Position numbers and translations under genes: made by a program. The notes beneath the pieces are model-generated. The model had not been told where the DNA came from. It saw only the letters and a list, made by a program, of their open reading frames with translations, and ran no database searches. From positions 1 to 8,414 of the forward strand of contig CANFGS010000042.1 in the NCBI GenBank assembly GCA_947446595.1: DNA of 8,414 nucleotides, in the 5' to 3' direction. Each line of letters begins with the position of its first letter. Positions within the stretch are counted from its first letter, which is position 1. The stretch is from Neisseriaceae bacterium (lineage in GTDB: Bacteria > Pseudomonadota > Gammaproteobacteria > Burkholderiales > UBA11063). This document shows positions 1 to 8,414 of this stretch, piece after piece.

Positions 1-56
1 GAAACCTTCAAACCCCACTGCTCGCAAGAGTGGTGGGGTTTTTTATTTGCGGCGTG
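1..56 (+). repeat. Copy A of the conserved porin post-stop/terminator element; it is cut by the window edge
   Basis: gaaaccttcaaaccccactgctcgcaagagtggtggggtttttt matches 7034-7077 with 3-4 differences. It also matches the reverse complement of 7632-7676. Weaker similarity to copy B continues for ~12 nt past the T-run (9/12). Confidence 0.8.
10..44 (+). terminator. Rho-independent terminator, presumably for a gene upstream of the window
   Basis: The 11-bp stem is ccccactgctc / gagtggtgggg (2 G-U pairs). It has a GCAA (GNRA) tetraloop and is followed by TTTTTT at 39-44. Confidence 0.8.
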
Positions 57-168
57 TACATCATGCATTAACAATTAGCAATATAGAAACTACTGTCACA
101 ACAATAACGGTTGGCGTGTAAATTAACTGTTGCAATATCACTTGCAATTAACCACAGGAGCACACGCA

Positions 169-402
169 ATGACAGACGCACATGACGCACAAAAGCAACT
201 TGAACAATTACTCAAGCAACAAGAAGATTTAGCAGCAAAGATTGATGCACAACGCAAAGCCAGTCGTGATGCTGCACTGGAAACGGTTAAGAATTTGTGC
301 AAAGCGTACGAATTTAGCGCGGCAGATTTGAAAGGTTACATCAAAGCCACACGCACACGCAGCGCAACTAAAAAGGCAACGCCTCGCAAAAGACGCAGCT
401 GA
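169..402 (+). CDS. Small H-NS-family-like protein: N-terminal coiled-coil/oligomerisation region plus a basic tail, with no recognisable C-terminal DNA-binding domain
   Basis: AGGAG at 156-160 lies 8 nt before the ATG at 169 (the ORF track starts at a TTG at 130). The pattern QKQLEQLLKQQEDLAAKIDAQRK...ETVKNLCKAYEFSAADL resembles the N-terminal half of betaproteobacterial H-NS-like proteins. The protein ends in ...KKATPRKRRS, without a TWxGRG-type motif. Confidence 0.6.
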   Translation: MTDAHDAQKQLEQLLKQQEDLAAKIDAQRKASRDAALETVKNLCKAYEFSAADLKGYIKATRTRSATKKATPRKRRS

Positions 403-502
403 ACAAGCAGCCAGCGTAATTAAGCACTGGGCGCATATTGTTTTACAACAGCACCGTCCAGTAACTGCTACTGCCACTTACCGCACACTAACGTCAGCAC
501 AA

Positions 503-1147
503 GTGCAGCGTTTGGAGCGTGTGTGCACACAGTTGTTGCGTGCTGCACATGCACCAGTAGCTGCTGCCAGCATGCGTGCAGTGCTAACGGCAGACGAATA
601 CGACACATACACAAGCCAACTGACAGCACCGCAAACGCACTATGACGTGCTACGTGAGCAGGGCAGACCAGATGCACTAACTGGATACATTGAACTGCTT
701 AGGCGTGCAGACTTTACAAATGCACGTGCAAACGCTGCAGCAAACCGCGTGAACAATTACAGGAATGCACTTAAGTTACGAGAACAAAGTGACCACGAGT
801 ATGAATTGGCGTGTGAATACATGGAAGAACAATTTAGCGTGTGTGACGCAGGCGAACGTGCGCGGTTGGAAGCGTGGTTGGACAGACCGTTTGACTACGG
901 CATTGGTGGCTTAATTAGCATTGACTGCGTGGGTGTTGCACGTGTAATTGGCAGCACCAGCCAATACTGCAGACACAAACAGGAGCGTGCACAACAGCAG
1001 CTGATTTGGCGACGACAGTGTCAGCTAGATGCTCTTGGAAGTGCGGCGTATGACATGTTGTACGAACCAGATGTTGCAGCCAATCCCACCATGAGCCATC
1101 GACTGTGTGCACTACTGGACAACCTGCGCGATGCAGACACCATTTAG
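503..1147 (+). CDS. Hypothetical protein (214 aa from GTG 503; an alternative ATG lies at 572)
   Basis: This is a long ORF with the same GCA/ACA/CAA codon preference as neighbouring island genes. No clear SD precedes either start. I recognise no family. Confidence 0.55.
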   Translation: MQRLERVCTQLLRAAHAPVAAASMRAVLTADEYDTYTSQLTAPQTHYDVLREQGRPDALTGYIELLRRADFTNARANAAANRVNNYRNALKLREQSDHEYELACEYMEEQFSVCDAGERARLEAWLDRPFDYGIGGLISIDCVGVARVIGSTSQYCRHKQERAQQQLIWRRQCQLDALGSAAYDMLYEPDVAANPTMSHRLCALLDNLRDADTI

Positions 1148-1165
1148 CTTGCAACAGCGTACAAA

Positions 1166-1738
1166 TTAAGCCAATTCAACTGCACGGCGCAGCATGTCAT
1201 CATTAGCGTCAATGTACACAGCAGTGGTGCTGATATTGCGGTGTCCCATCAAGCGCATGAGTACACGTATCCCAGTGCCTTGATTGGCTAAATTGGTTGC
1301 AAATGTTCTGCGTCCACTGTGGCTACTGGCACCATCAATGCCCGCGTTCCTGTACAACCAGCGCACATGTCCTGCAAGAGTGTTAGCAGTAAAGCCGCGG
1401 CGTGGCTTTTGTTGTGTGTAAAAAAACGCCCAGTCACCTGCGCGCTGTTTGGTAGTGTCAACGTAGCGTTGTAATTCCTTGCGCAGTCGCTCACTAACAA
1501 ACACCGTGCGTGCATGACAGCGTTTGGTTTGCTCTGCGCGCAGGTGTATCTCGTCACGTACACGTCCTGCGTCGTTAACAACATCAGCCCATGTAAGTGC
1601 AGCGCACTCACCTACACGTAAACCTGCCAAGTGTTGTAGCAATATGATTGCGCGGTTACGTGGTGCGTGCACACGTGTTGCTATGTGGTCTAGTACTCTG
1701 CGCAATTCCTGCGCACTAAATGTTTTTGCTTGTGCCAT
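1166..1738 (-). CDS. Short (190 aa) tyrosine recombinase / phage-integrase-family protein consisting essentially of the catalytic domain
   Basis: AAGGAG (1753-1748, minus strand) lies 9 nt before the ATG at 1738. Catalytic signature: GLRVGE (Arg I), HSGRRTF (H-x-x-R), GHRNISTTAVY (His ... Tyr nucleophile). No N-terminal arm-binding or SAM-like domain fits in 190 aa. Confidence 0.9.
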   Translation of the reverse strand: MAQAKTFSAQELRRVLDHIATRVHAPRNRAIILLQHLAGLRVGECAALTWADVVNDAGRVRDEIHLRAEQTKRCHARTVFVSERLRKELQRYVDTTKQRAGDWAFFYTQQKPRRGFTANTLAGHVRWLYRNAGIDGASSHSGRRTFATNLANQGTGIRVLMRLMGHRNISTTAVYIDANDDMLRRAVELA

Positions 1739-1830
1739 GTGTCAGTGCTCCTTAAAAGTTCACATAAATAAAGCACTAGCAGTATGTTTTCAGCGAGCCA
1801 GTTTGGGCAACCAGTTTGTGCAATATGCGC

Positions 1831-1853
1831 AGGTCTTTGTGTGTCAAAGACTT
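1831..1853 (-). promoter_or_regulatory. Operator-like palindrome overlapping a -35-like TTGACA, upstream of the short recombinase gene
   Basis: aggtctttg-tgtgt-caaagactt has 9-bp arms with 1 mismatch. On the minus strand it contains a perfect TTGACA (1847-1842). The best -10 candidate at 16-nt spacing is weak (TATTGC). Confidence 0.3.
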
Positions 1854-1981
1854 GCCAATTGGTTCACGGCTAATCGTTATTTTGTGTGGAAATATTTAGT
1901 ACTTTCTGTTGGCCGCACTAAATTAAGCCCTACAAGCTGTCAAATTACTAGCCAGCTACCAGACTAGCTGACAGGTGCTAA

Positions 1982-2026
1982 TGACGTGCTTTTGACGTGC
2001 GTTTGACGTGTTTGCGTGCGCGCACG
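1982..2026. promoter_or_regulatory. Iteron cluster: TGACGTG x3 at exact 11-bp phasing, a degenerate 4th copy, and a perfect 12-bp palindrome
   Basis: TGACGTG occurs at 1982, 1993 and 2004, each in a TTTGACGTGC-like unit. TG-CGTGC follows at 2013. CGTGCGCGCACG (2015-2026) is self-complementary. An A/T-rich tract follows at 2040-2105. Confidence 0.6.
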
Positions 2027-2125
2027 AAATGGGTTTTGCACATGACAAAATCAGTGCTGCGAAAAATTTACAAATCAAAATCTATTTGGTGTGGTGATTT
2101 TTTACCTATACCCACCACATTGATA

Positions 2126-2144
2126 GCGAACTTTGCAAGTTCGC
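2126..2144. other. Perfect 8-bp stem / 3-nt loop hairpin
   Basis: The sequence is gcgaactt-tgc-aagttcgc. No T-run follows on either strand, so I do not call it a terminator. Confidence 0.4.
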
Positions 2145-2280
2145 TTGTGCTTTCACAAAACACCTATCGCTCGTCGCTCAGTGTTTTATTCAGCACACTG
2201 TTGTGTTAAATGATTGAATTGCGAACACAACGCAGTTGTGTGAGTGGTATTGGGTTCATTTAGATAGATTAGATTGGACG

Positions 2281-2331
2281 CACGACGGCTATGTGACTTG
2301 GATAAGAAGTCAACATAACCGCCGTGTCGTG
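2281..2331. other. Long bulged palindrome with a 7-nt centre; candidate recombination core site or structured RNA/ssDNA element
   Basis: The left arm is cacgac-ggc-tatgt-gactt and the centre is ggataag. The right arm is aagtc-a-acata-acc-gcc-gt-gtcgtg. All blocks are complementary, with 6 extra nt in the right arm. Confidence 0.4.
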
Positions 2332-2554
2332 TAGTTTCATTTGAGTGAGTTGAGTCGTTACTACACGCCTGTAACAGAGTTGTGTGGAGACAGATGTATT
2401 GAAACTCCCAGCCGTGTGTTGCACGTACTGCTCTGCGGCATCACCATTTGTCACACGCTGTTACAGCAACGTGTGTAGTGCGGGGTCATTAGCCGTCATA
2501 TTACAACCCGCGTTTGTCCACTGTTAACGTGTTGGTTATCACGTGTGTATTTGA

Positions 2555-2938
2555 TTAGGTGCCTGATTTTGGTAGTAGCTTGTGTGCTGCGAACAGTTGC
2601 CTGTTTACTTTGGTTGCTATGTTTAGGACTGGATACGCGGATTCTGGTTTGAGTCGTGCGCACAGTTTGGTGTTACCAACGCGACGCTGGAAGTCGCGCA
2701 GGGTTTTGGATTGTTCAGTTGTTAATAGATTTGGATGTTGTGTGAGTAGAGTGTGTGCCGTAAGTTGTGCCTTTAGCAGTTTGGGATTTAGGTTGTTAAA
2801 TGTTGCCGTATTAAAGCCTGAGTTTTTAAGCCATTTATCAGTAGCCAACTTGGATTGGTTTTGCTTGCGCAGGATGCCAAACTGGGCATGTGTAAGTTTG
2901 TCTTTGAGTTGTTTCATATAGTTATTTAGCAAGACCAC
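2555..2938 (-). CDS. Hypothetical protein (127 aa from GTG 2938, or 120 aa from ATG 2917)
   Basis: The K/Q/L/T-rich ORF has island-typical codon usage. The overlapping plus-strand ORF (2559-2921) is Cys/Ser/Arg-rich, as expected for an antisense artefact. No convincing SD is present. Confidence 0.55.
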   Translation of the reverse strand: MVLLNNYMKQLKDKLTHAQFGILRKQNQSKLATDKWLKNSGFNTATFNNLNPKLLKAQLTAHTLLTQHPNLLTTEQSKTLRDFQRRVGNTKLCARLKPESAYPVLNIATKVNRQLFAAHKLLPKSGT

Positions 2939-3077
2939 ATAAAAGCAGATAAATTTCTTGGCAGATTTATGGCTTAAAACAGGCAGTTATGAGTGCAATA
3001 ACTGCTGCATGTGCATGATTTGGGCGAATTAGTTGGTAGTGTGCGGGTGTGAATAAATACATAAAAGGAGACCACAA

Positions 3078-3695
3078 GTGCGATTACAGGAATTTGCCAG
3101 TGCAGAAGAACAAATGGCGCTGTGGCGTTTGGTAAGTGACAGTGTGTGGGCAAGTATTGGCCAACAAGCACACCTTGAACGGCAAGAGCGTGCTGCAAAA
3201 GCTGCGCAGGCTAAAACTAAACGCAAACGTGGAAATAGAGCAGGTAGTAAATCAAGCAGCACACCAGTGCCAATTAAGATGCCAAAGCAACCAAATAACA
3301 AAGTTGCAACAGCAAATGCACCAACTGCACCAACTGCAGCCAACACTGCGCCAGTTGGTAATGCTGTGGCTAATGCAAGCACGAGTGGTATGTACAAGAA
3401 TGGCAGCAACACGAATGCAGCAAACAAAATAGCAGCCAATTCAAATGTTGCAATCACGCCAACAACAGCCGCACAACCAAGTCCTGCATTTAGTCCAGCA
3501 CATCCTGCAACACCAACAGTTCCCGCGCCAGCAAATTACAGTACACAAAAAGCGTCTAGCGGGTCACAAGACGCATTTAATTGGCGAAATACACCTACAC
3601 ACAAAAAATTACCAGCCGCCACCGACAGGCATAGTGCAAATGCTTACCGCACACAAACAGTGCATCCAAGTGCACGTGGTGCAATAACCCGATAA
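3078..3695 (+). CDS. Hypothetical protein: short structured N-terminus, a K/R-rich linker, then a long A/T/N/P-rich low-complexity region
   Basis: AAAGGAG (GGAG at 3067-3070) lies 7 nt before the GTG at 3078. Codon choice (GCA, ACA, CAA, CCA) matches the other island genes. I recognise no family. Confidence 0.6.
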   Translation: MRLQEFASAEEQMALWRLVSDSVWASIGQQAHLERQERAAKAAQAKTKRKRGNRAGSKSSSTPVPIKMPKQPNNKVATANAPTAPTAANTAPVGNAVANASTSGMYKNGSNTNAANKIAANSNVAITPTTAAQPSPAFSPAHPATPTVPAPANYSTQKASSGSQDAFNWRNTPTHKKLPAATDRHSANAYRTQTVHPSARGAITR

Positions 3696-3785
3696 ATTGG
3701 CGGTGTAAACATAGAGTGTGGTTGCCCAAGTGTGCGGGCTGACAATAAAGTTTGTGCTGTAACGACAACACAACGGAGTAATTAA

Positions 3786-4238
3786 ATGTCAACAGCAACA
3801 CTTGCAACGCTCTCAGCGTTGAAATTAACAGCAGCACGTAAACCTCGTGCACTACCTGAGGCTGTCAAACGCCGTAACAAACTGCTCAACAAATTAAAAG
3901 AGCAACGCGAACTTGCACTGGCGCAAAGCGAAGGACGTACATATGTGCCCAAACGTCTGCGTACCGTGCGTGACTTGGATGGCAACAGAGTAGTGCGTGA
4001 AATGCCTGTGCGTATCAAGCCTTGGTGGTGGACAGGCGAGAAGAACGAGACACTGCTGAGCGTGTTCTACGGTAGCAAGACGTTGGAGTTGGGCAAAGGT
4101 AAGACAGCAGTTGAAATTGCCAACCCACGCGAACTGGTCAATGTGCTGGATGTGTTGATTACTGCAACGCAAAACGCAGAATTGGATGCACAGATTGATG
4201 CTGCCAGCAATAAGTTACGCGATAGCTTTAAGAAATAG
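3786..4238 (+). CDS. Conserved-looking hypothetical protein (150 aa)
   Basis: GGAG at 3775-3778 lies 7 nt before the ATG at 3786. The motifs RRNKLL..L.EQ...A, IKPWWW, YGSK.LELGKGKTAVE and ELDAQID recall an uncharacterised proteobacterial family often seen near integrases. That link is from memory only and I cannot name the family reliably. Confidence 0.7.
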   Translation: MSTATLATLSALKLTAARKPRALPEAVKRRNKLLNKLKEQRELALAQSEGRTYVPKRLRTVRDLDGNRVVREMPVRIKPWWWTGEKNETLLSVFYGSKTLELGKGKTAVEIANPRELVNVLDVLITATQNAELDAQIDAASNKLRDSFKK

Positions 4239-4277
4239 CTAATGGATAGCAAAGACTAGACAGCAGAGCATTAACGC

Positions 4278-5594
4278 TTAGGTGCGTTTGCTCTGCAGCA
4301 TGGCAATATTTTGCTCACCCGTTACCGTACTGGCGTAGTGGTTGTTGATAACTTCTACGCTGGTACGTGCATTTCGCGCCAATGTCACCAAGTCAATTCC
4401 TTGACCGTACAAGAGCCTAAATGTAATGGCGCTGTGGCGCAGACTGTAAAGGCTTCGCGGATTACCATGCGGATTGAGCTTTAATCCAGTGTGCTGTAAC
4501 ACCCAGTTAAACATATAACTGAGCACGTTCATTGCGTAGCGACGGTTGGGAATGTCTGGCAAGAACAGGTAATCATTTGTACCAATACGCTTGCGTGGTG
4601 TTTGGTACTGGCATATTTGACGGTAAATGCGCACAGCAGGCAGCAGCGTAACAATGGGCGCAGCGTGCAACTTGGTCTCAGGCAATGTCAATCGTAAATA
4701 TGTCTGCTTGCTGTGTACGATTTCCACATGACGGTGGCGTAGCTTAACCAAGTCACCTGGACGGATAAAGCTATTGACCATAAACCCAATCGCCCAAGCA
4801 ACATCTGGTGGCATACGATTGTCGTTGTAGCACTGTTGTAAGCGTTTACGCATGTCTTTGCGTGTGTCTGGATGCGTTGTGCCACGCAGTGCACGTGCAG
4901 CACGTAGCAATTGCCAATATTCTGTAGGTGTAAATGCGCCGCGTGACGTGCTGCGAACTTTGATTTTGGGGACATCTGGCACATGTTCAATTAAACCTGT
5001 GCGTTGTGCATGCGTCAGCACCTTTCGCACAATTACAAGGTAATGGCTAACTGTGGTTGTGCTGAACTTGGCGCTGAGTGTCTGTGCAAATGCCAGTAAC
5101 TTTTGGTAAGTTAATTCACCAATCAACTTGGTGCCAAATGCAGGCAATATGTGTGCATCCAAACGGTTACGAAACATTCGTAAACTGCCTGCACCATATT
5201 CACCGCGTTCAACACGTGCTTGCTCGTTTGCATAAACTTGTGCTGCAACGGCACCAAATGTCATTTGTGCTGGTGTATTGCTGTCATTTCCAGTCGTACC
5301 CTGCAGACTTGCATGCTGGGAATACTTGACCAACAAGTCTTCATAAAACCAACGTGCAAATCTCTGTGCCAACACTAGATTACATGTTTTGGTACTTTGC
5401 TTGTGTGTGCGTCCTGCATGCCAGCAACGCACTTGCCAATATCTACTGGCTGCTATTTTGTAGATAACCAATTTGTTTGGGTAATTTGGTACTGCGGTGA
5501 TGCTTGATGGTATTGGTACGGTGCGTGTGCGTTTAATCAAACGGTCGTTGGCTGCATCAATTTGGTAGTTGGCAACTGTTGTCATCATGCTCAC
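4278..5594 (-). CDS. Tyrosine integrase, 438 aa (phage-integrase family)
   Basis: The C-terminal catalytic domain carries FIRPGD (Arg I), LYSLRHSAITF and LARNARTSVEVINNHY (Tyr nucleophile). The N-terminal ~230 aa is long enough for arm- and core-binding domains. The start is GTG 5594 or ATG 5588/5585, and the SD is weak. Confidence 0.9.
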   Translation of the reverse strand: MSMMTTVANYQIDAANDRLIKRTRTVPIPSSITAVPNYPNKLVIYKIAASRYWQVRCWHAGRTHKQSTKTCNLVLAQRFARWFYEDLLVKYSQHASLQGTTGNDSNTPAQMTFGAVAAQVYANEQARVERGEYGAGSLRMFRNRLDAHILPAFGTKLIGELTYQKLLAFAQTLSAKFSTTTVSHYLVIVRKVLTHAQRTGLIEHVPDVPKIKVRSTSRGAFTPTEYWQLLRAARALRGTTHPDTRKDMRKRLQQCYNDNRMPPDVAWAIGFMVNSFIRPGDLVKLRHRHVEIVHSKQTYLRLTLPETKLHAAPIVTLLPAVRIYRQICQYQTPRKRIGTNDYLFLPDIPNRRYAMNVLSYMFNWVLQHTGLKLNPHGNPRSLYSLRHSAITFRLLYGQGIDLVTLARNARTSVEVINNHYASTVTGEQNIAMLQSKRT

Positions 5595-5807
5595 AGCTTA
5601 AAGTAGCACGCCGCAAAGGTCTAGCAAATAAGTTTTGTGTGTGCAAATTACAGCGTGCGATATCACCTTCAGTCAGCCGCTAAACAACCGTTCCTGCCGT
5701 GCACAAAATAGACTAATTAGTGTTGTTATTTGTGCGTGACATGTAGCGCACTTCAAACCGTACAACTTGTTGCAATTACAAATTGGTGCTGTCAATGTAG
5801 CACCTTG

Positions 5808-5849
5808 CAAATACCTTTTAGCAACTAGCTGCCGCAGGCAAATGTGCAA
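5808..5849 (+). repeat. Conserved leader at the integrase/porin junction (module 1)
   Basis: caaatacc..ctgcc..ggcaaatgtgcaa aligns by hand with the reverse complement of 7817-7855 (caaatacg..ctgcc..ggtaaatgtgcta). About 29-30 of ~42 columns match, with 3 small gaps. Confidence 0.45.
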
Positions 5850-5860
5850 CCCTCGTTGCA

Positions 5861-7000
5861 TTGGCTGCACTCGTAAGCGTGACAGCGTTCGCACAAACAT
5901 CTGTAAAACTGTTGGGAAACATTGACGCTGGATATCAATCCAACGATTACAAAGGAAACAAGATTTCCGGTATCAACAACAACGGCTCTGCTACTTCACA
6001 AATCGACATTGAAGTTATTGAAGATTTGGGCGGCGGTTTGAAAGCTAAAGTTTGGTTGGAATCAGACATCAACCCAGTTGCTGCTCAAGCTAACACTGGT
6101 TATGCCTCAAGTATCAAATCAGGTACTGACGCAGGCGGCGGTACTTGGTTGAACTCTGAGCAAAAAGTTGGCTTGGCTGGCAATTTTGGTGAAGTTGCTG
6201 TTGGTGTTGTCAACAACAAAACATTAGCTGCCAACGGTACAGGTCAACCTTTTGGTACTGCCATTGGTTCTGGCTACGGTAGCATCATCAAGGCTTCTGC
6301 TGGCGTTGCTGCAAGCACTGCTTCAGTTGTTCGCTTTGACAACTCTGTTCGTTACGACACACCCGTTGTTAATGGCTTCTCTGGTTCGGTTTACTACGTG
6401 GCAAAACAAGCTGTCAGTAACGGCAAAGCTAACTACAGCACAACATTGGGCGCGTTCAGCAAGGCTGGTATCAATGAATATTCAGTAAACTACTCAAACG
6501 GTCCAGTGAATGCAACCTATGTCATTCAACAAGCTGATTACAACGGCGTAGTGACTCCTGGTGCTGTTGACTACAACACAGCAACTGCTGGTGTACCTAC
6601 TGCTGTCGCTGGAACAGCTTTGACAACAAAGTCTTCTTTGAAGACTCTGTCTGCTAGCTACGCTTGGAACGCATTTACCTTTGGTGCGACAACTCAATCA
6701 TTGAAAGATGATGCATCTACAAATGCAGTTAACACCAAAGCCACCTTGGGTAGTGTTAAGTACACAATGGGCGCAACAATGCTCGGCCTAACATCAGGTT
6801 CTTTGACAAACAGTGTTACCAACACAAAGTCAACATTCTTGGGTTACGGTGCTCAGTATCAATTGAGCAAAACGACAAAAGTCTACGCTCAGTTTGAAAC
6901 TCTGAATGACGACGGCGGTACAGTAGCAGCAGTTACTGGTTACACCGAAGTTGGTACAAAGCGTACTCGCTCAGGTTTAGGTGTTAACGTCGCCTTCTAA
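5861..7000 (+). CDS. Outer-membrane general-diffusion porin (Gram-negative porin family); the 5' end appears incomplete
   Basis: It has a signal-peptide C-region ...ALVSVTAFA|QTS and a mature N-terminus SVKLLGNIDAGY. It has a G/N/T/S/Y-rich beta-barrel composition and a C-terminal ...GLGVNVAF with terminal Phe. Codon usage looks like a highly expressed gene (GGT/GCT/ACT). The only in-frame start after the TAG at 5819-5821 is TTG 5861, which has no SD. Confidence 0.85.
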   Translation: MAALVSVTAFAQTSVKLLGNIDAGYQSNDYKGNKISGINNNGSATSQIDIEVIEDLGGGLKAKVWLESDINPVAAQANTGYASSIKSGTDAGGGTWLNSEQKVGLAGNFGEVAVGVVNNKTLAANGTGQPFGTAIGSGYGSIIKASAGVAASTASVVRFDNSVRYDTPVVNGFSGSVYYVAKQAVSNGKANYSTTLGAFSKAGINEYSVNYSNGPVNATYVIQQADYNGVVTPGAVDYNTATAGVPTAVAGTALTTKSSLKTLSASYAWNAFTFGATTQSLKDDASTNAVNTKATLGSVKYTMGATMLGLTSGSLTNSVTNTKSTFLGYGAQYQLSKTTKVYAQFETLNDDGGTVAAVTGYTEVGTKRTRSGLGVNVAF

Positions 7001-7080
7001 TCCCCGCGCTGGCTAAACCAGTTAAGGATTTAGAAAACCTTGAAACCCCATTGCTCGCAAGAGTGGTGGGGTTTTTTAAT
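6994..7080 (+). repeat. Copy B of the porin post-stop element (last two codons, small hairpin, terminator)
   Basis: By hand alignment about 80 of 88 positions are identical to the reverse complement of 7629-7716. Its 3' half matches 1-47. Confidence 0.9.
7043..7077 (+). terminator. Rho-independent terminator of the porin gene
   Basis: The stem is ccccattgctc / gagtggtgggg with a GCAA loop, followed by TTTTTT at 7072-7077. Confidence 0.85.
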
Positions 7081-7101
7081 TGTGGGGTGGTGTTTGCTGT
7101 T

Positions 7102-7539
7102 GTGAAAGAAAGGATAACGATTGTTGGCACTATTTATGGCTTTTCCGATGCTAAGGCTATAAACGAAATTTATTGCGACACACATTGCTCCCAATACCCA
7201 ACGGTGCGCCCTTTGACAAAAATTCGTACACAAATTGAATTGGATGATGGCACAGAGGTTTGGGTCGATGGTGTTCCAAAATTTTGCGATGAAGACGACA
7301 TCCTAGATATTGAAACTGAAGAAGTTGATCTTGACAGCCTGTGTGCAGACATCTCGCAAGCGATTAATTCTGGTTGGATTGAAATTGGCTTAATAGCCAA
7401 TGAGAAGCTTAGATATGCTTATTACCAAACGCTGAAAATCTATTCCAATGGACAAGGCGTAAGAACATACGCCTTGACTGGACAGCAATTCCCGCAAGGA
7501 GTTACAACTGAATTCACTAAGTTGTTTCAGTCTATTTGA
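7102..7539 (+). CDS. Hypothetical small acidic protein; the start is uncertain (GTG 7102 proposed)
   Basis: The ORF is open from 7051, but 7051-7080 is terminator repeat. The frame has no ATG codon at all. The AT-rich codon usage differs from the island. A clean terminator follows, and I recognise no family. Confidence 0.5.
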   Translation: MKERITIVGTIYGFSDAKAINEIYCDTHCSQYPTVRPLTKIRTQIELDDGTEVWVDGVPKFCDEDDILDIETEEVDLDSLCADISQAINSGWIEIGLIANEKLRYAYYQTLKIYSNGQGVRTYALTGQQFPQGVTTEFTKLFQSI

Positions 7540-7558
7540 CAGTCTTTTATTAATTTTT

Positions 7559-7582
7559 AACCCGCCTTAGTGCGGGTTTTTT
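7559..7582 (+). terminator. Rho-independent terminator of the 7102-7539 ORF
   Basis: The stem is aacccgc / gcgggtt with a cttagt loop. The T-run is at 7577-7582. Confidence 0.8.
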
Positions 7583-7594
7583 ATTGCCTATATC

Positions 7595-7611
7595 TGTCGT
7601 GTAACACGACA
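7595..7611. other. Perfect 8-bp-arm palindrome TGTCGTGT-A-ACACGACA
   Basis: Read directly from the sequence. It lies between two convergent terminators, and its function is unknown. Confidence 0.35.
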
Positions 7612-7628
7612 CCACAAACTACTCGCCC

Positions 7629-7716
7629 ATTAAAAAACCCCACCACTCTTGCGAGCATTGGGGTTTAAAGGTTTTCTAAATCCTCTAACTGGCTAAGCCA
7701 GCAGGGGGATTAGAAG
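7629..7716 (-). repeat. Copy C of the porin post-stop element, inverted
   Basis: The reverse complement is cttctaatccccctgctggcttagccagttagaggatttagaaaacctttaaaccccaatgctcgcaagagtggtggggttttttaat. This aligns with 6994-7080. Confidence 0.9.
7632..7666 (-). terminator. Rho-independent terminator (minus strand) behind the porin remnant
   Basis: It is the same hairpin as copies A and B, with one A.G mismatch in the stem. On the minus strand a T6 run follows (plus-strand A6 at 7632-7637). Confidence 0.7.
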
Positions 7717-7817
7717 TTCTTGCGCAAAGCAATAGAAGTGATCTTCTGTGTCTCGCCCAACATGTTGACCATCTGACCGCCGTAGGCGTTGTTGCCTTGA
7801 TAGAACATGCCATAGCT
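7710..7817 (-). pseudogene. Porin gene remnant: the last ~35 codons plus the stop
   Basis: The minus-strand translation is ...SYGMFYQGNNAYGGQMVNMLGETQKITSIALRKNF*. This aligns with the final strands of the intact porin (Y..F...N..GG ... L/G..x.F). A near-identical porin 3' UTR follows. The rest of the 84-aa ORF (7710-7964) is antisense to the integrase fragment. Confidence 0.75.
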
Positions 7818-8414
7818 AGCACATTTACCGATTGGCAGAAAGATAAACGTATTTGGATCAAAAGCAACTACCACCAAATGCCCTACGAAATGACAAGCTT
7901 GATTCGGTTCATGGTGTACACCTTTGTTCGGCCAGGTGATATTCGTCAAATTCAAAACAAACACATAGAAATCATCAAAGGCCAGTACAACTATTTACGG
8001 TTAAACCTGCCAGAGGTAAAGCGGCACAAGGCTGCGACCGTTAGCTTGCCACCAGCAGTCAATATTTACAAGCATCTAATGGCTTATCAAACGTCGCGCG
8101 GCTATGGCAAACCAGATGACTATGTGTTCTTTCCAGAAGAAAAAAACCGCCGTTTGATGCTCGACATCATCGGTTGGTTGTTCAATTGGATATTGAAAGA
8201 TTTAGATTTCAAATTAGGGCCACATGGTGTCGAGCGCACTTTGTATAGCTTGCGTCACACGGCTATTACTTTTAGGTTGATTTATGGTGGCAATATCGAT
8301 TTGTTAACCCTTGCCCGAAATGCCCGTACATCGGTGGAGATGATTGAAAAGTTTTATGCCAGTACCTTGTCTGCGGAGATGAATATTGCACTTTTACATG
8401 GTAAACGCCGCTAA
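7797..8414 (+). pseudogene. 5'-truncated paralog of the 438-aa integrase (catalytic domain only); its stop codon is the last triplet of the window
   Basis: From about nt 7866 the translation aligns with residues ~256-438 of the 4278-5594 product. By hand count 89 of 168 residues are identical from FMV onward, including FVRPGD, LYSLRHTAITF and TLARNARTSVEMI..FY. The N-terminal ~250 codons are absent. The ORF opens only with a TTG at 7797, and no SD is present. Confidence 0.7.
7817..7855 (-). repeat. Conserved leader at the integrase/porin junction (module 2)
   Basis: See 5808-5849. In both copies GGY AAA TGT GCW (G-K-C-A) is in the porin reading frame. Confidence 0.45.

Follow-up and report, generated by a model that had tools for sequence, protein, structure and literature searches.

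A candidate ~7-kb mobile element that may insert in the first codons of porin genes and place its own porin behind the host promoter

Introduction

Porins encoded by prophages include Lc of PA-2 and NmpC of DLP12; these genes, which belong to lambdoid prophages (complete or defective), come with promoters of their own and sit elsewhere than at a resident porin gene. In integrons, promoterless genes are captured by a resident promoter through tyrosine recombinase chemistry. The vsa, vpma and vsp systems of Mycoplasma switch surface proteins at an expression site by site-specific recombination (PMC2268961). SXT/R391 ICEs in prfC and dusA-specific islands are known examples of insertion at the 5' end of a gene in which the target is repaired (PMC2791158, PMC8409611).

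Here, we analyzed a stretch of 8,414 nt (contig CANFGS010000042.1, positions 1–8,414, + strand; hereafter, the window) for which an initial annotation had proposed a porin-swap element. Comparison of the window with related loci (L numbers below) supports this interpretation at the level of sequence, and we consider it probable that a ~7-kb mobile element inserts in the first codons of a porin gene and puts its own promoterless porin behind the host promoter. Most of the predictions made in the annotation were open to checking in related contigs, and the majority of them were borne out. In the literature that was searched, we came across no account of an element of this kind.

Results

As a starting point, we collected the features of the window in Table 1.

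Table 1. Features of the window (coordinates in nt)
Feature	Position	Strand	Remarks
Copy A	1–45	+	3'UTR end of the upstream (incoming) porin; terminator hairpin 10–41 and T run
Island (non-porin backbone)	46–5847		Left edge within 46–57, just past the T run; right edge 5847
77-aa protein	169–402	+	Coiled-coil N-terminus, basic C-terminus; phrog_10171 match
214-aa protein	503–1147	+	215- and 221-aa variants in relatives
Small tyrosine recombinase, 190 aa	1166–1738	-	Pfam Phage_integrase, E = 2.4e-28
Gene-poor stretch	1739–3077		Called ORFs differ between copies; window ORF 2555–2938 (-), 120 or 153 aa in relatives
205-aa low-complexity protein	3078–3695	+	Rich in Ala, Asn, Thr, Pro
DUF6641 protein, 150 aa	3786–4238	+	Pfam PF20346, E = 1.5e-9; phrog_31551, E = 1.1e-22
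Integrase Int1, 435-aa tyrosine recombinase	4278–5585	-	phrog_1, E = 8.8e-27; Phage_int_M
Island-side arm, right junction	5586–5847	+	ACCTT repeats (~5803–5817); copy of the porin 5'UTR end without SD
Crossover core AACCCTCGTTGC (proposed)	5848–5859	+	Porin signal-peptide codons Lys3 to Ala7; found once in the window
Displaced resident porin (porin1)	5849–7000	+	Porin_4; 383 codons, body intact but lacking promoter, SD and start codon
porin1 3'UTR with copy B	7001–7089	+	Hairpin 7042–7075; same sequence after intact L008 porin1
Neighbouring ORF, start uncertain	7051–7539	+	Conserved; own terminator 7559–7578; homologues in L008 (130 aa) and L022 (171 aa)
Copy C	7605–7709	-	3'UTR and terminator of a second, convergent porin (porin2)
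porin2 remnant	7710–7810	-	Last 33 codons and stop; 84% aa identity to L008 porin2 C-terminus
Filler, 9 nt	7811–7819
Int2 3' fragment	7820–8414	+	First ~237 codons missing; 96.5% nt identity to L008 4383–4977; weak Pfam Phage_integrase match

The annotation had described an island that ends at a leader fused to a start-less porin, and the right junction bears this out: the island stops at 5847 and the 5' coding region of a porin runs from 5848 (Pfam Porin_4, E = 5.5e-35), with no start codon before a TTG at 5861 that itself lies within the signal peptide. The frame of porin1 is closed upstream by a TAG at 5819–5821, the only nearby ATG (5842–5844) is out of frame, the SD sequence GGAG is replaced by TTAG in the island-side arm, and the + strand showed no promoter-like site. 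The body itself has no internal stop codon, and reading frames are still open in five of five displaced porins. An intact porin1 allele (P0001; 98% amino acid identity) that starts with MKKTLVA and has a promoter region is present in L008, L009 and L010, which represent the empty site: porin1 (98% identity in amino acids, 95–99% in nucleotides) with its native 5'UTR and ATGAAAAAAACCCTCGTTGC, and with the same downstream DNA.

The 12 nt of the core are common to attB-, attL-, attR- and attP-like junctions, and in the island-side form the core lies inside the inverted repeat TGCAA-CCCTCG-TTGCA. GGYAAATGTGC, which had been put forward as the core, belongs to the island-side arm and is missing at the left junction (the window has it a second time, within the coding sequence of a second integrase). 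The broader expectation of a short core shared by both junctions holds in L022, in which AACCCTCGTTGC is found at both, in direct orientation, at 12450 and 19538. The island end, ...gcaggcaaatgtgc followed by AACCCTCGTTGC, is joined exactly to at least six different porin bodies (window, L013, L015, L016, L017, L018, L022, and L112), and the element is found in at least six different displaced porins and at least three downstream contexts.

The left junction lies outside the window, whose own upstream gene is known by homology only. In related contigs the upstream gene is, as predicted, a full-length porin with the native 5'UTR, an SD sequence (GGAG) and ATG AAA AAA, located at a conserved COQ7-adjacent locus in L012/L024, L022, L023, L026, L027, L029, L030, and L031, and also present in L020. 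Its stop codon had been placed ~45 nt before position 1; the figure by homology with L014 is ~35 nt. The conserved 5'UTR region yielded no match to a sigma-70 consensus promoter, and the term "promoter" is used here on grounds of conservation and position. Island-free relatives with a single porin at the locus, another prediction, were found in L011 (a 1.2-Mb contig) and L007 (a MAG), both with one porin after COQ7. The complete arrangement is seen in L022 (a 58-kb chromosomal contig) in the order T2SS, OsmC, threonine dehydratase, COQ7, 5'UTR, porinA, island and start-less porinB; here the two core copies are 7,088 bp apart and enclose a porin body together with the island.

The flank of L022 is 99.83% identical to that of L012 over 8,615 nt, up to ~30 nt past the core, and the islands of these near-isogenic loci are 95.6% identical, but their first porins share only ~30% amino acid identity. 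One porin body was found with two left arms: behind the host promoter in L012, and in L016 behind the integrase end and followed by the island left end (100% identical over 408 aa; 99.4% over 2,522 nt, with identity beginning at the core). Both comparisons argue against a simple knock-out, in which a porin-less island would have hit the 5' end of the second gene of an older tandem porin pair and the upstream porin would be the host's own. The very diverse left-side porins (at least eight kinds), which are unlinked to island variants, and the variant core TCCCTTGTTGC that the upstream porin of L020 has of its own would fit such a history. However, a single core crossover would leave the promoter, 5'UTR and ATG of the second porin at the left end of the island, and these are absent in 12 of 12 loci, where the island abuts the terminator. 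Further, the native 5'UTR, wherever present, is followed by ATG and a porin body and never directly by island DNA, and the island-free relatives have one porin and not a pair. We therefore regard the knock-out as unlikely and favor insertion of a unit that brings its own porin.

The annotation had also given weight to two direct repeats, copies A and B, that bracket the island plus the displaced porin. The repeats are real and direct (2–56 and 7035–7089; 55 nt, 91% identical) and the bracketing stands, but they are general porin terminators that are also present in island-free genomes. A G+C-rich hairpin of 14 bp with a U run after it forms in each copy (copy A: -23.8 kcal/mol, z = -3.6), indicating that the copies are intrinsic terminators. 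The same terminator follows porins in island-free L007, L011 and L008, orphan copies occur too, and the sequence of copy A follows the porin stop codon in L012, L014, L015, L017, L018, L019, L020, and L022. A and B thus bracket the island and the displaced porin because every porin ends with that terminator. A 36-nt core of the repeat, AAACCCCAYTGCTCGCAAGAGTGGTGGGGTTTTTTA, is present in three places when one mismatch is allowed (10–45, +; 7043–7078, +; 7631–7666, -), with none expected by chance (200 shuffles). The third, inverted copy (copy C, 7605–7684), previously unremarked, lies beyond what is left of a porin (33 codons), itself joined to a second, truncated integrase, implying that the repeat is a general porin 3'UTR and not an insertion product; its region is homologous to the DNA after the L007 porin and after L008 porin2. 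Repeats A and B are conserved porin terminators of the lineage, not att repeats or attachment-site duplications.

That island DNA begins directly after copy A was confirmed: the sequence common to the window and 12 related loci begins at 1–11, inside the conserved terminator, and at least eight unrelated porin 3' ends precede the shared sequence in those loci. This start of homology inside the terminator, together with the direct orientation of A and B around the island and porin1, could be taken to mean that the terminator is the att site, that the unit consists of the island and the start-less right porin, and that it was inserted in the 3'UTR/terminator of the resident porin with A and B as the duplicated site. 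We find this very doubtful given the presence of the terminator after every porin and as orphan copies. It is at odds, moreover, with a 5' junction that is nucleotide-exact in more than 25 contexts and in three integrase subfamilies and that adjoins the integrase gene, and with the native 5' end of porin1 ahead of the same downstream DNA in L008–L010, which indicates that porin1 is resident and not cargo.

We next consider the backbone of the element. It is colinear and 95.7–98.4% identical among loci in which it is flanked by different porins (L001–L006, L012–L018, L020–L022); the backbones of L017 and L018 have internal deletions and the integrase of both carries a deletion, the match in L016 falls into two pieces (93.6% and 97.4%), and L019 shares window 1–2929 only. 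The backbone variant is not closely linked to the kind of porin at the left end (same-porin pairs are 95.4–98.8% identical, different-porin pairs up to 99.1%), which points to an exchange of cargo, to recombination between island copies or to strains being blurred in the metagenome consensus; a crossover confined to the 5' core could not swap cargo. The Int1 gene, divergent from the displaced porin, is terminal in the element and 262 nt away from the junction. The DUF6641 gene is always convergent with the integrase gene, and adjoins it in nearly all metagenome loci that reach far enough past the integrase. The small recombinase consists of a catalytic domain only and has the size of FimB/FimE; its weak NCBIfam matches to Xer and DNA-invertase models were all below curated cutoffs, and its amino acid identity is 41–57% in most related elements and 86% in one. 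The exact 77-aa protein is indexed in 92 blocks of the collection, and distant homologues of the 214-aa protein occupy the same position in other subfamilies. Scans with Pfam, PHROG and NCBIfam recognised no transfer, replication or excisionase genes in the element; nor were there phage structural, lysis or replication genes, the PHROG matches being integrases and two unannotated PHROGs. Integrase matches in the NCBIfam and Pfam scans were generic and sub-threshold only. A search for a relative in IMG/VR returned no match.

Beyond porin1, the neighbouring ORF at 7051–7539 is chromosomal context outside the element, and the Int2 fragment is what remains of another member of the element family, oriented the other way. 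In L008, a full Int2 (41% identical to Int1) abuts a start-less porin2, with the same target, the same junction type gcaggcATGcaaTAAaCCCTCGTTGC and an in-frame stop codon; L008 2282–4382 is absent from the window. Sites within one array are direct (L022), and in the window and L008 two elements face opposite ways on either side of a convergent pair of porins. Among the loci compared, we saw no two that were inversion isomers of each other.

Finally, we surveyed the family across metagenomes; the element hosts are uncultured freshwater Burkholderiales. Relatives of Int were encoded by 440 of 540 candidates, and 80 loci were kept for study (integrase 58–95% identical). The backbone of Int, DUF6641 and small recombinase is conserved in the family. 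A porin was found at most 700 nt upstream of the integrase in 55 loci, in every one of which it is divergent and lacks Met-Lys-Lys, often with a stop codon immediately ahead of TLVA, an arrangement also seen in other subfamilies; porin homology starts mostly 250–310 nt (range 180–420) from the integrase start. L055 (a 214-kb contig) and L044 have a porin 3' end and terminator at the far end of the element. A join like that expected of attP, with the integrase end leading through the core and the cargo porin to the left end of the island, is present in L016 and L017; tandem copies would explain it as well as a circle would, and L060 contains tandem copies in an 18-kb contig. All of this evidence comes from metagenome assemblies, the porin flanks are repeats of 60–170 nt and short reads cannot phase adjacency across a 1.2-kb porin body, but chimeric joins at conserved porin 5' and 3' flanks that do not reflect real molecules are hardly credible, since the island-core-porin and promoter-core-porin junctions share 12 nt only, too short for chimeras, and identical junctions turn up in dozens of samples, in different assemblies (ENA GROS21, JGI and other metagenome records) and within the 58-kb and 214-kb contigs.

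Discussion

Sequence comparison shows the junctions with their core, an empty site, an architecture that is conserved and an element present in several target porins; with its integrase at one end, the unit thereby has most features of a site-specific integrative element with a tyrosine integrase. In the mechanism that we propose, the window would be the right-hand six sevenths of a ~7-kb integrated unit, made up of a promoterless porin body with its terminator and then ~5.8 kb of backbone encoding the 77-aa and 214-aa proteins, the small tyrosine recombinase, the low-complexity protein, DUF6641 and the 435-aa tyrosine integrase. The integrase would recombine the element site (island arm ...GCAGGCAAATGTGC, core AACCCTCGTTGC and the signal-peptide codons of the cargo porin) with the identical 12 nt at codons 3–7 of the resident porin (...GGAGAAACTTGAAATGAAAAA followed by AACCCTCGTTGC...). 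Integration would fuse the host 5'UTR, SD and ATG-AAA-AA in frame to the porin of the element, which would then be expressed, and would shift the resident body ~7 kb downstream behind an arm without SD or in-frame start, so that the resident porin should not be made. Repeated insertions would generate tandem arrays of intact, start-less porins. The unit may also excise as a circle and may be transferred from cell to cell.

The initial annotation had called this process a 5'-end analogue of tRNA 3'-end restoration; the difference from prfC and dusA (PMC2791158, PMC8409611) is that the target would be replaced instead of repaired. Like the SXT/R391 prfC and dusA islands, the porin element has a tyrosine integrase and a putative att site that falls within the first codons of a conserved gene of the chromosome; the gene for the integrase lies by that junction. 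Unlike them, it is tiny (~7 kb) and without recognisable transfer genes, its arm by the displaced gene has no SD and no in-frame start, and at attL it would set a complete gene body of its own downstream of the host promoter. A target-restoring 5'-end island was rejected, as no promoter-like site and no new N-terminus were found for the displaced gene, whose frame is closed by the TAG and which lacks the SD.

The Mycoplasma vsa, vpma and vsp loci would resemble the arrangement proposed here in having one active promoter, several intact silent genes that share a 5' recombination site, and a tyrosine recombinase nearby, and the outcome in both cases would be a changed major surface protein. The Mycoplasma systems, however, are fixed chromosomal loci that switch by inversion, whereas the porin units are insertions with sites seen in direct orientation, polymorphic between near-identical chromosomes and present at several target genes.

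With integrons, the porin element would have in common the capture of a promoterless gene by a resident promoter, tyrosine recombinase chemistry, and an order in which the newest insertion is nearest the promoter and older ones are pushed downstream as a silent array. It differs in lacking IntI, attI and attC, in the integrase and 5.8-kb backbone that each unit has of its own, in a site inside the coding sequence that would make the fusion translational, and in cassettes that are all alleles of one protein family. Integron-integrase models matched 46–64 residues of the small recombinase at 22.7–47.3 bits against cutoffs of 265–435, the repeat search of the window yielded no attC-like repeats, and an integron was rejected.

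Like the prophage porins Lc and NmpC, the element would bring an alternative porin and alter the composition of the outer membrane; unlike them, its porin would need to capture the host porin promoter for expression, and the resident gene is physically cut off from that promoter. A porin-carrying prophage (lysogenic conversion) was rejected on the gene content described above and the IMG/VR search.

The major outer-membrane porin is commonly a phage receptor, and the benefit of the exchange may lie in changed recognition by phages or predators. If the proposed porin swap is true, insertion of this element would accomplish the replacement of a cell-surface protein in one step.

Porin Terminators on Either Side of the Island

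Copies A and B (window 2-56 and 7035-7089) are 55-nt direct repeats that are 91% identical and spaced 7,033 bp apart. With at most one mismatch allowed, a 36-nt core of the repeat occurs three times (10-45 and 7043-7078 on the forward strand; 7631-7666 on the reverse strand) where none is expected by chance, and each copy folds as a 14-bp G+C-rich hairpin with a T run behind it, the form of an intrinsic terminator. The frame of the displaced porin (porin1) is closed upstream by TAG (5819-5821) and its first start codon is a TTG within the signal peptide. Together with the gene calls, the repeats and this start-less frame bear out the initial annotation, which had described direct copies A and B bracketing an island and a porin lacking its start.

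A single type of 3'UTR and terminator follows every porin gene of the lineage, even when the porins share only ~30% amino acid identity, and it is also found in island-free genomes (L007, an uncultured Burkholderiales MAG; L011, a 1.2-Mb contig; and L008). Since this terminator stands behind all porins, with or without an island, the possibility that copies A and B are attachment-site duplications is ruled out; they bracket the island and the displaced porin because a porin terminates on either side. Copy C, a third and inverted copy that the initial annotation left unused, comes after a 33-codon porin remnant. A second conserved hairpin precedes the terminator and forms the first portion of the 3'UTR (TCCCCRCGCTGGCTWAGCCAGTT...; window 7001-7041 and, on the reverse strand, 7667-7709). 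That genes so divergent share a conserved 3'UTR points to a function, such as mRNA stability, production of an sRNA from the 3'UTR or a role as recombination handle. Searching genome contigs for the terminator returned only L007, an island-free relative with orphan terminators; at 1290-1620 of this otherwise island-free MAG, between an ABC-transporter permease gene and a substrate-binding-protein gene, two orphan porin 3'UTR/terminator elements enclose 68 nt left over from an Int1-like integrase gene, an arrangement that resembles the scar of an earlier insertion.

The Right Junction Lies Within the First Codons of a Porin Gene

Among database proteins, P0001 is the closest to the window porin; it is an intact allele, 98% identical, with the N-terminus MKKTLVALAALVSVTAFAQTS. 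In L008, L009 and L010, a conserved 5'UTR, GGAG and ATGAAAAAAACCCTCGTTGC precede the P0001 gene, and the DNA downstream of it is the same as in the window. Homology between these loci and the window begins at AACCCTCGTTGC (window 5848), left of which island DNA (...GCAGGCAAATGTGC) takes the place of the native porin 5' region. Other contigs have this island end fused, at the identical nucleotide position, to six or more different porin bodies. When compared to the native 5'UTR end ACCTTGGAGAAACTTGAAATG, the island arm ACCTTTTAGCAACTAGCTGCCGCAGGCAAATG has no Shine-Dalgarno sequence and its ATG is out of frame; judged by sequence, this arm resembles a porin 5'UTR end that has been disabled. Open reading frames are retained in the displaced porins in 5/5 cases, and the window porin1 differs from the expressed allele by 7 synonymous and 7 non-synonymous codons, a number too small to judge selection. 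Within the 45 nt left of the core (window 5790-5847), ACCTT (often CACCTT) is repeated two to three times with ~11-nt phasing in all integrase subfamilies, and one copy is present in the native 5'UTR; we infer that these repeats are candidate protein-binding sites.

Related Contigs Reveal the Left Junction and the Empty Site

The window ends inside terminator A, and we therefore read the left side from related contigs that extend further. In L012/L024 and L022, type II secretion genes, OsmC, threonine dehydratase, COQ7 and the conserved 5'UTR are followed by ATGAAAAAAACCCTCGTTGC, a full-length porin, the terminator and the island, such that the full-length porin that had been predicted upstream of the island is present in these relatives. 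The 58-kb contig L022 contains both junctions, with the core at 12450 and again at 19538, 7,088 bp apart, and the second copy leads into a start-less porin. The expectation of a short core shared by both junctions thus holds, but the motif initially proposed, GGYAAATGTGC, is not that core: it belongs to the island-side arm and is missing from the left junctions. This motif occurs twice in the window (5837-5847, forward; 7819-7829, reverse) versus 0.02 expected. The second occurrence is within the coding sequence of Int2, a second integrase, and borders a 2.1-kb deletion relative to L008, whose intact Int2 reads GGTAAATGTGT at this site; one base of it is supplied by filler, and the occurrence may reflect either coincidence or use as a pseudo-site.

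As also anticipated, island-free relatives have a single porin at the locus: L011 and L007 carry the same flanking genes and one porin after COQ7. Over 8,615 nt the flanks of L022 and L012 match at 99.83%, with the identity ending ~30 nt past the core; the islands of the two contigs are 95.6% identical, and the first porin of one is unrelated to that of the other (~30% identity). At the protein level, the L012 first porin and the L016 porin match completely (100% identity), with 99.4% nucleotide identity over 2,522 nt beginning at the core; in L016 this porin has an integrase end on one side and an island left end on the other, each from a separate island copy. Finding the same porin body with either left arm is as expected of recombination at the core. 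Wherever the native 5'UTR is present, ATG and a porin body come next and never island DNA, which excludes integration of a cargo-less island by a single crossover. The leading porin of L020 has a variant core. A search for an intact allele of the L022 displaced porin (porinB), at an empty COQ7 site in that lineage, gave only start-less copies in the same context.

The porin 5'UTR itself (~150-170 nt; L008 171-315, L012 8419-8562 and L007 4563-4738 on the reverse strand) is conserved across loci whose proteins share ~30% identity, starts with the palindrome TGTTGCACATAAGCAACG and includes the GGAGGTTGTCCCGYGAAAGCGGAGACC hairpin. It had no match in Rfam, and a consensus sigma-70 promoter was not found in this region upstream of intact porin1.

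Gene Content of the Island and a Second, Decayed Element

Seven called genes and one porin are located between copies A and B.

Features of the island, the displaced porin and the second-element remnant (window coordinates)
Feature	Position	Strand
77-aa protein	169-402	
214-aa protein	503-1147	
Small tyrosine recombinase, 190 aa	1166-1738	-
Gene-poor stretch	1739-3077	
Low-complexity protein, 205 aa	3078-3695	
DUF6641 protein	3786-4238	
Int1, tyrosine integrase, 435 aa	4278-5585	-
Porin_4 porin (porin1)	5849-7000	
Porin2 3'UTR/terminator (copy C)	from 7605	-
Porin2, last 33 codons	7710-7810	-
9-nt filler joining porin2 remnant to Int2 fragment	7811-7819	
Int2 3' part, 198 codons	7820-8414	

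The small recombinase consists of a catalytic domain only, is FimB/FimE-sized and shares 41-57% amino acid identity across most related elements (86% in one); no invertible segment was seen for it. The 1.3-kb gene-poor stretch, in which the called ORFs vary by copy (none, 120 aa or 153 aa), could contain an origin, a regulatory RNA or binding sites. Strand composition is strongly biased in window 1-4200 (AT skew on the coding strand reaching +0.4, many CA/TG runs), which distinguishes the island from the porin and flanking DNA. Some island copies have internal deletions in the integrase gene (island positions 4853-5287 in L017 and 4280-4624 in L018), indicating that arrays include decayed, non-autonomous units. 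No excisionase, replication or transfer functions were recognized in the element. Exact-protein look-ups with the DUF6641 protein, Int1 and TTG-started porin1 gave no match, and a tRNA search, PADLOC, a PDB sequence search with Int1 and NCBIfam on the proteins of no known function returned nothing informative.

Window 7605-8414 is what is left of a second, oppositely oriented element of this family, in which 2,101 bp are deleted relative to L008 (L008 2282-4382). The L008 Int2 is only 41% identical to Int1 and lies head-to-head with another start-less porin (junction gcaggcATGcaaTAAaCCCTCGTTGC). With this decayed second element, both porins of the convergent pair in this region have been hit.

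The Element Family Is Common in Metagenomes

We scanned a metagenome collection with an Int1 and Int2 alignment and kept 80 loci (58-95% identity); integrase relatives were encoded in 440 of 540 candidate stretches, and the exact 77-aa island protein was indexed in 92 blocks of the assembly collection, so that the family is common in the metagenome collection. IMG/VR scanned with the integrase alignment yielded no relatives. Of the loci with a porin locatable in the 700 nt upstream of the integrase, 55/55 had it in divergent orientation; the distance from the integrase start to the start of porin homology was mostly 250-310 nt (range 180-420), and these porins had a frame without Met-Lys-Lys, often with a stop codon directly before TLVA. 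The integrase, DUF6641 and small recombinase make up the backbone conserved across related loci. At the far end of the element, L055 (on a 214-kb contig) and L044 again have an adjoining porin stop codon and terminator, and L060 has a tandem arrangement. No clear, tight linkage was seen between backbone variant and cargo porin type.

Discussion

Comparison of the assembled junctions shows that a 12-bp core (window 5848-5859, porin codons 3-7) is common to the attB-, attL-, attR- and attP-like sites, that the host 5'UTR, Shine-Dalgarno sequence and first codons are fused in frame with the leading porin, and that the displaced porin has lost every translation signal. Near-identical chromosomes are polymorphic for the unit, and several different target porins are occupied. 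Int1 would catalyze strand exchange inside the spacer CCCTCG, which has the half-sites TGCAA and TTGCA on either side; the leading porin would be expressed, displaced porins would be silent and the unit would leave as a circle. Cargo cannot be exchanged through recombination at the 5' core, and we conjecture that it could be swapped by homologous recombination, either within the conserved 3'UTR/terminator or from one island copy to another in a tandem array.

Elements that insert at the 5' end of a gene have already been described, namely SXT/R391 in prfC and the dusA-specific islands (PMC2791158, PMC8409611), but the target restoration that defines them was absent here when tested. Mycoplasma vsa/vpma/vsp loci have one expression site and silent intact genes with a common 5' recombination site (PMC2268961); those are fixed inversion systems, whereas the units here are insertions. 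Integrons capture a promoter with position-dependent expression, but have IntI, attI and attC, none of which is in this element. Our literature searches found no description of a porin-targeting, porin-carrying integrative element or of promoter-capture porin replacement.

A wider reading, which we hold tentatively and consider rather unlikely to be correct as a whole, is that of a self-renewing 'porin integron' with archived porin arrays, integrase-driven switching, horizontal allele exchange and terminators as the cargo handle. Intact start-less porins would be stored in tandem, with one expression site ahead of them; the integrases would move units by excision, re-insertion or inversion between the two convergent sites of porin expression, and copies A, B and C would offer the homologous-recombination handle through which the backbone gains new cargo porins.

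In the outer membrane, porins are frequently the most abundant proteins, and phages and bacteriocins commonly use them as receptors. Hypervariable surface loci are thought to let abundant freshwater bacteria survive phage pressure, and to our knowledge the mechanisms behind such loci are mostly unknown. The element would swap the porin in one recombination event, without regulatory signals of its own, and the old allele would stay intact and reusable later. This proposal can be tested directly, given a defined 12-bp site and integrase. If the 'porin integron' reading were true, it would give a lineage reversible switching of the major porin and horizontal exchange of porin alleles, so that the population as a whole could escape phages for which the porin is the receptor.
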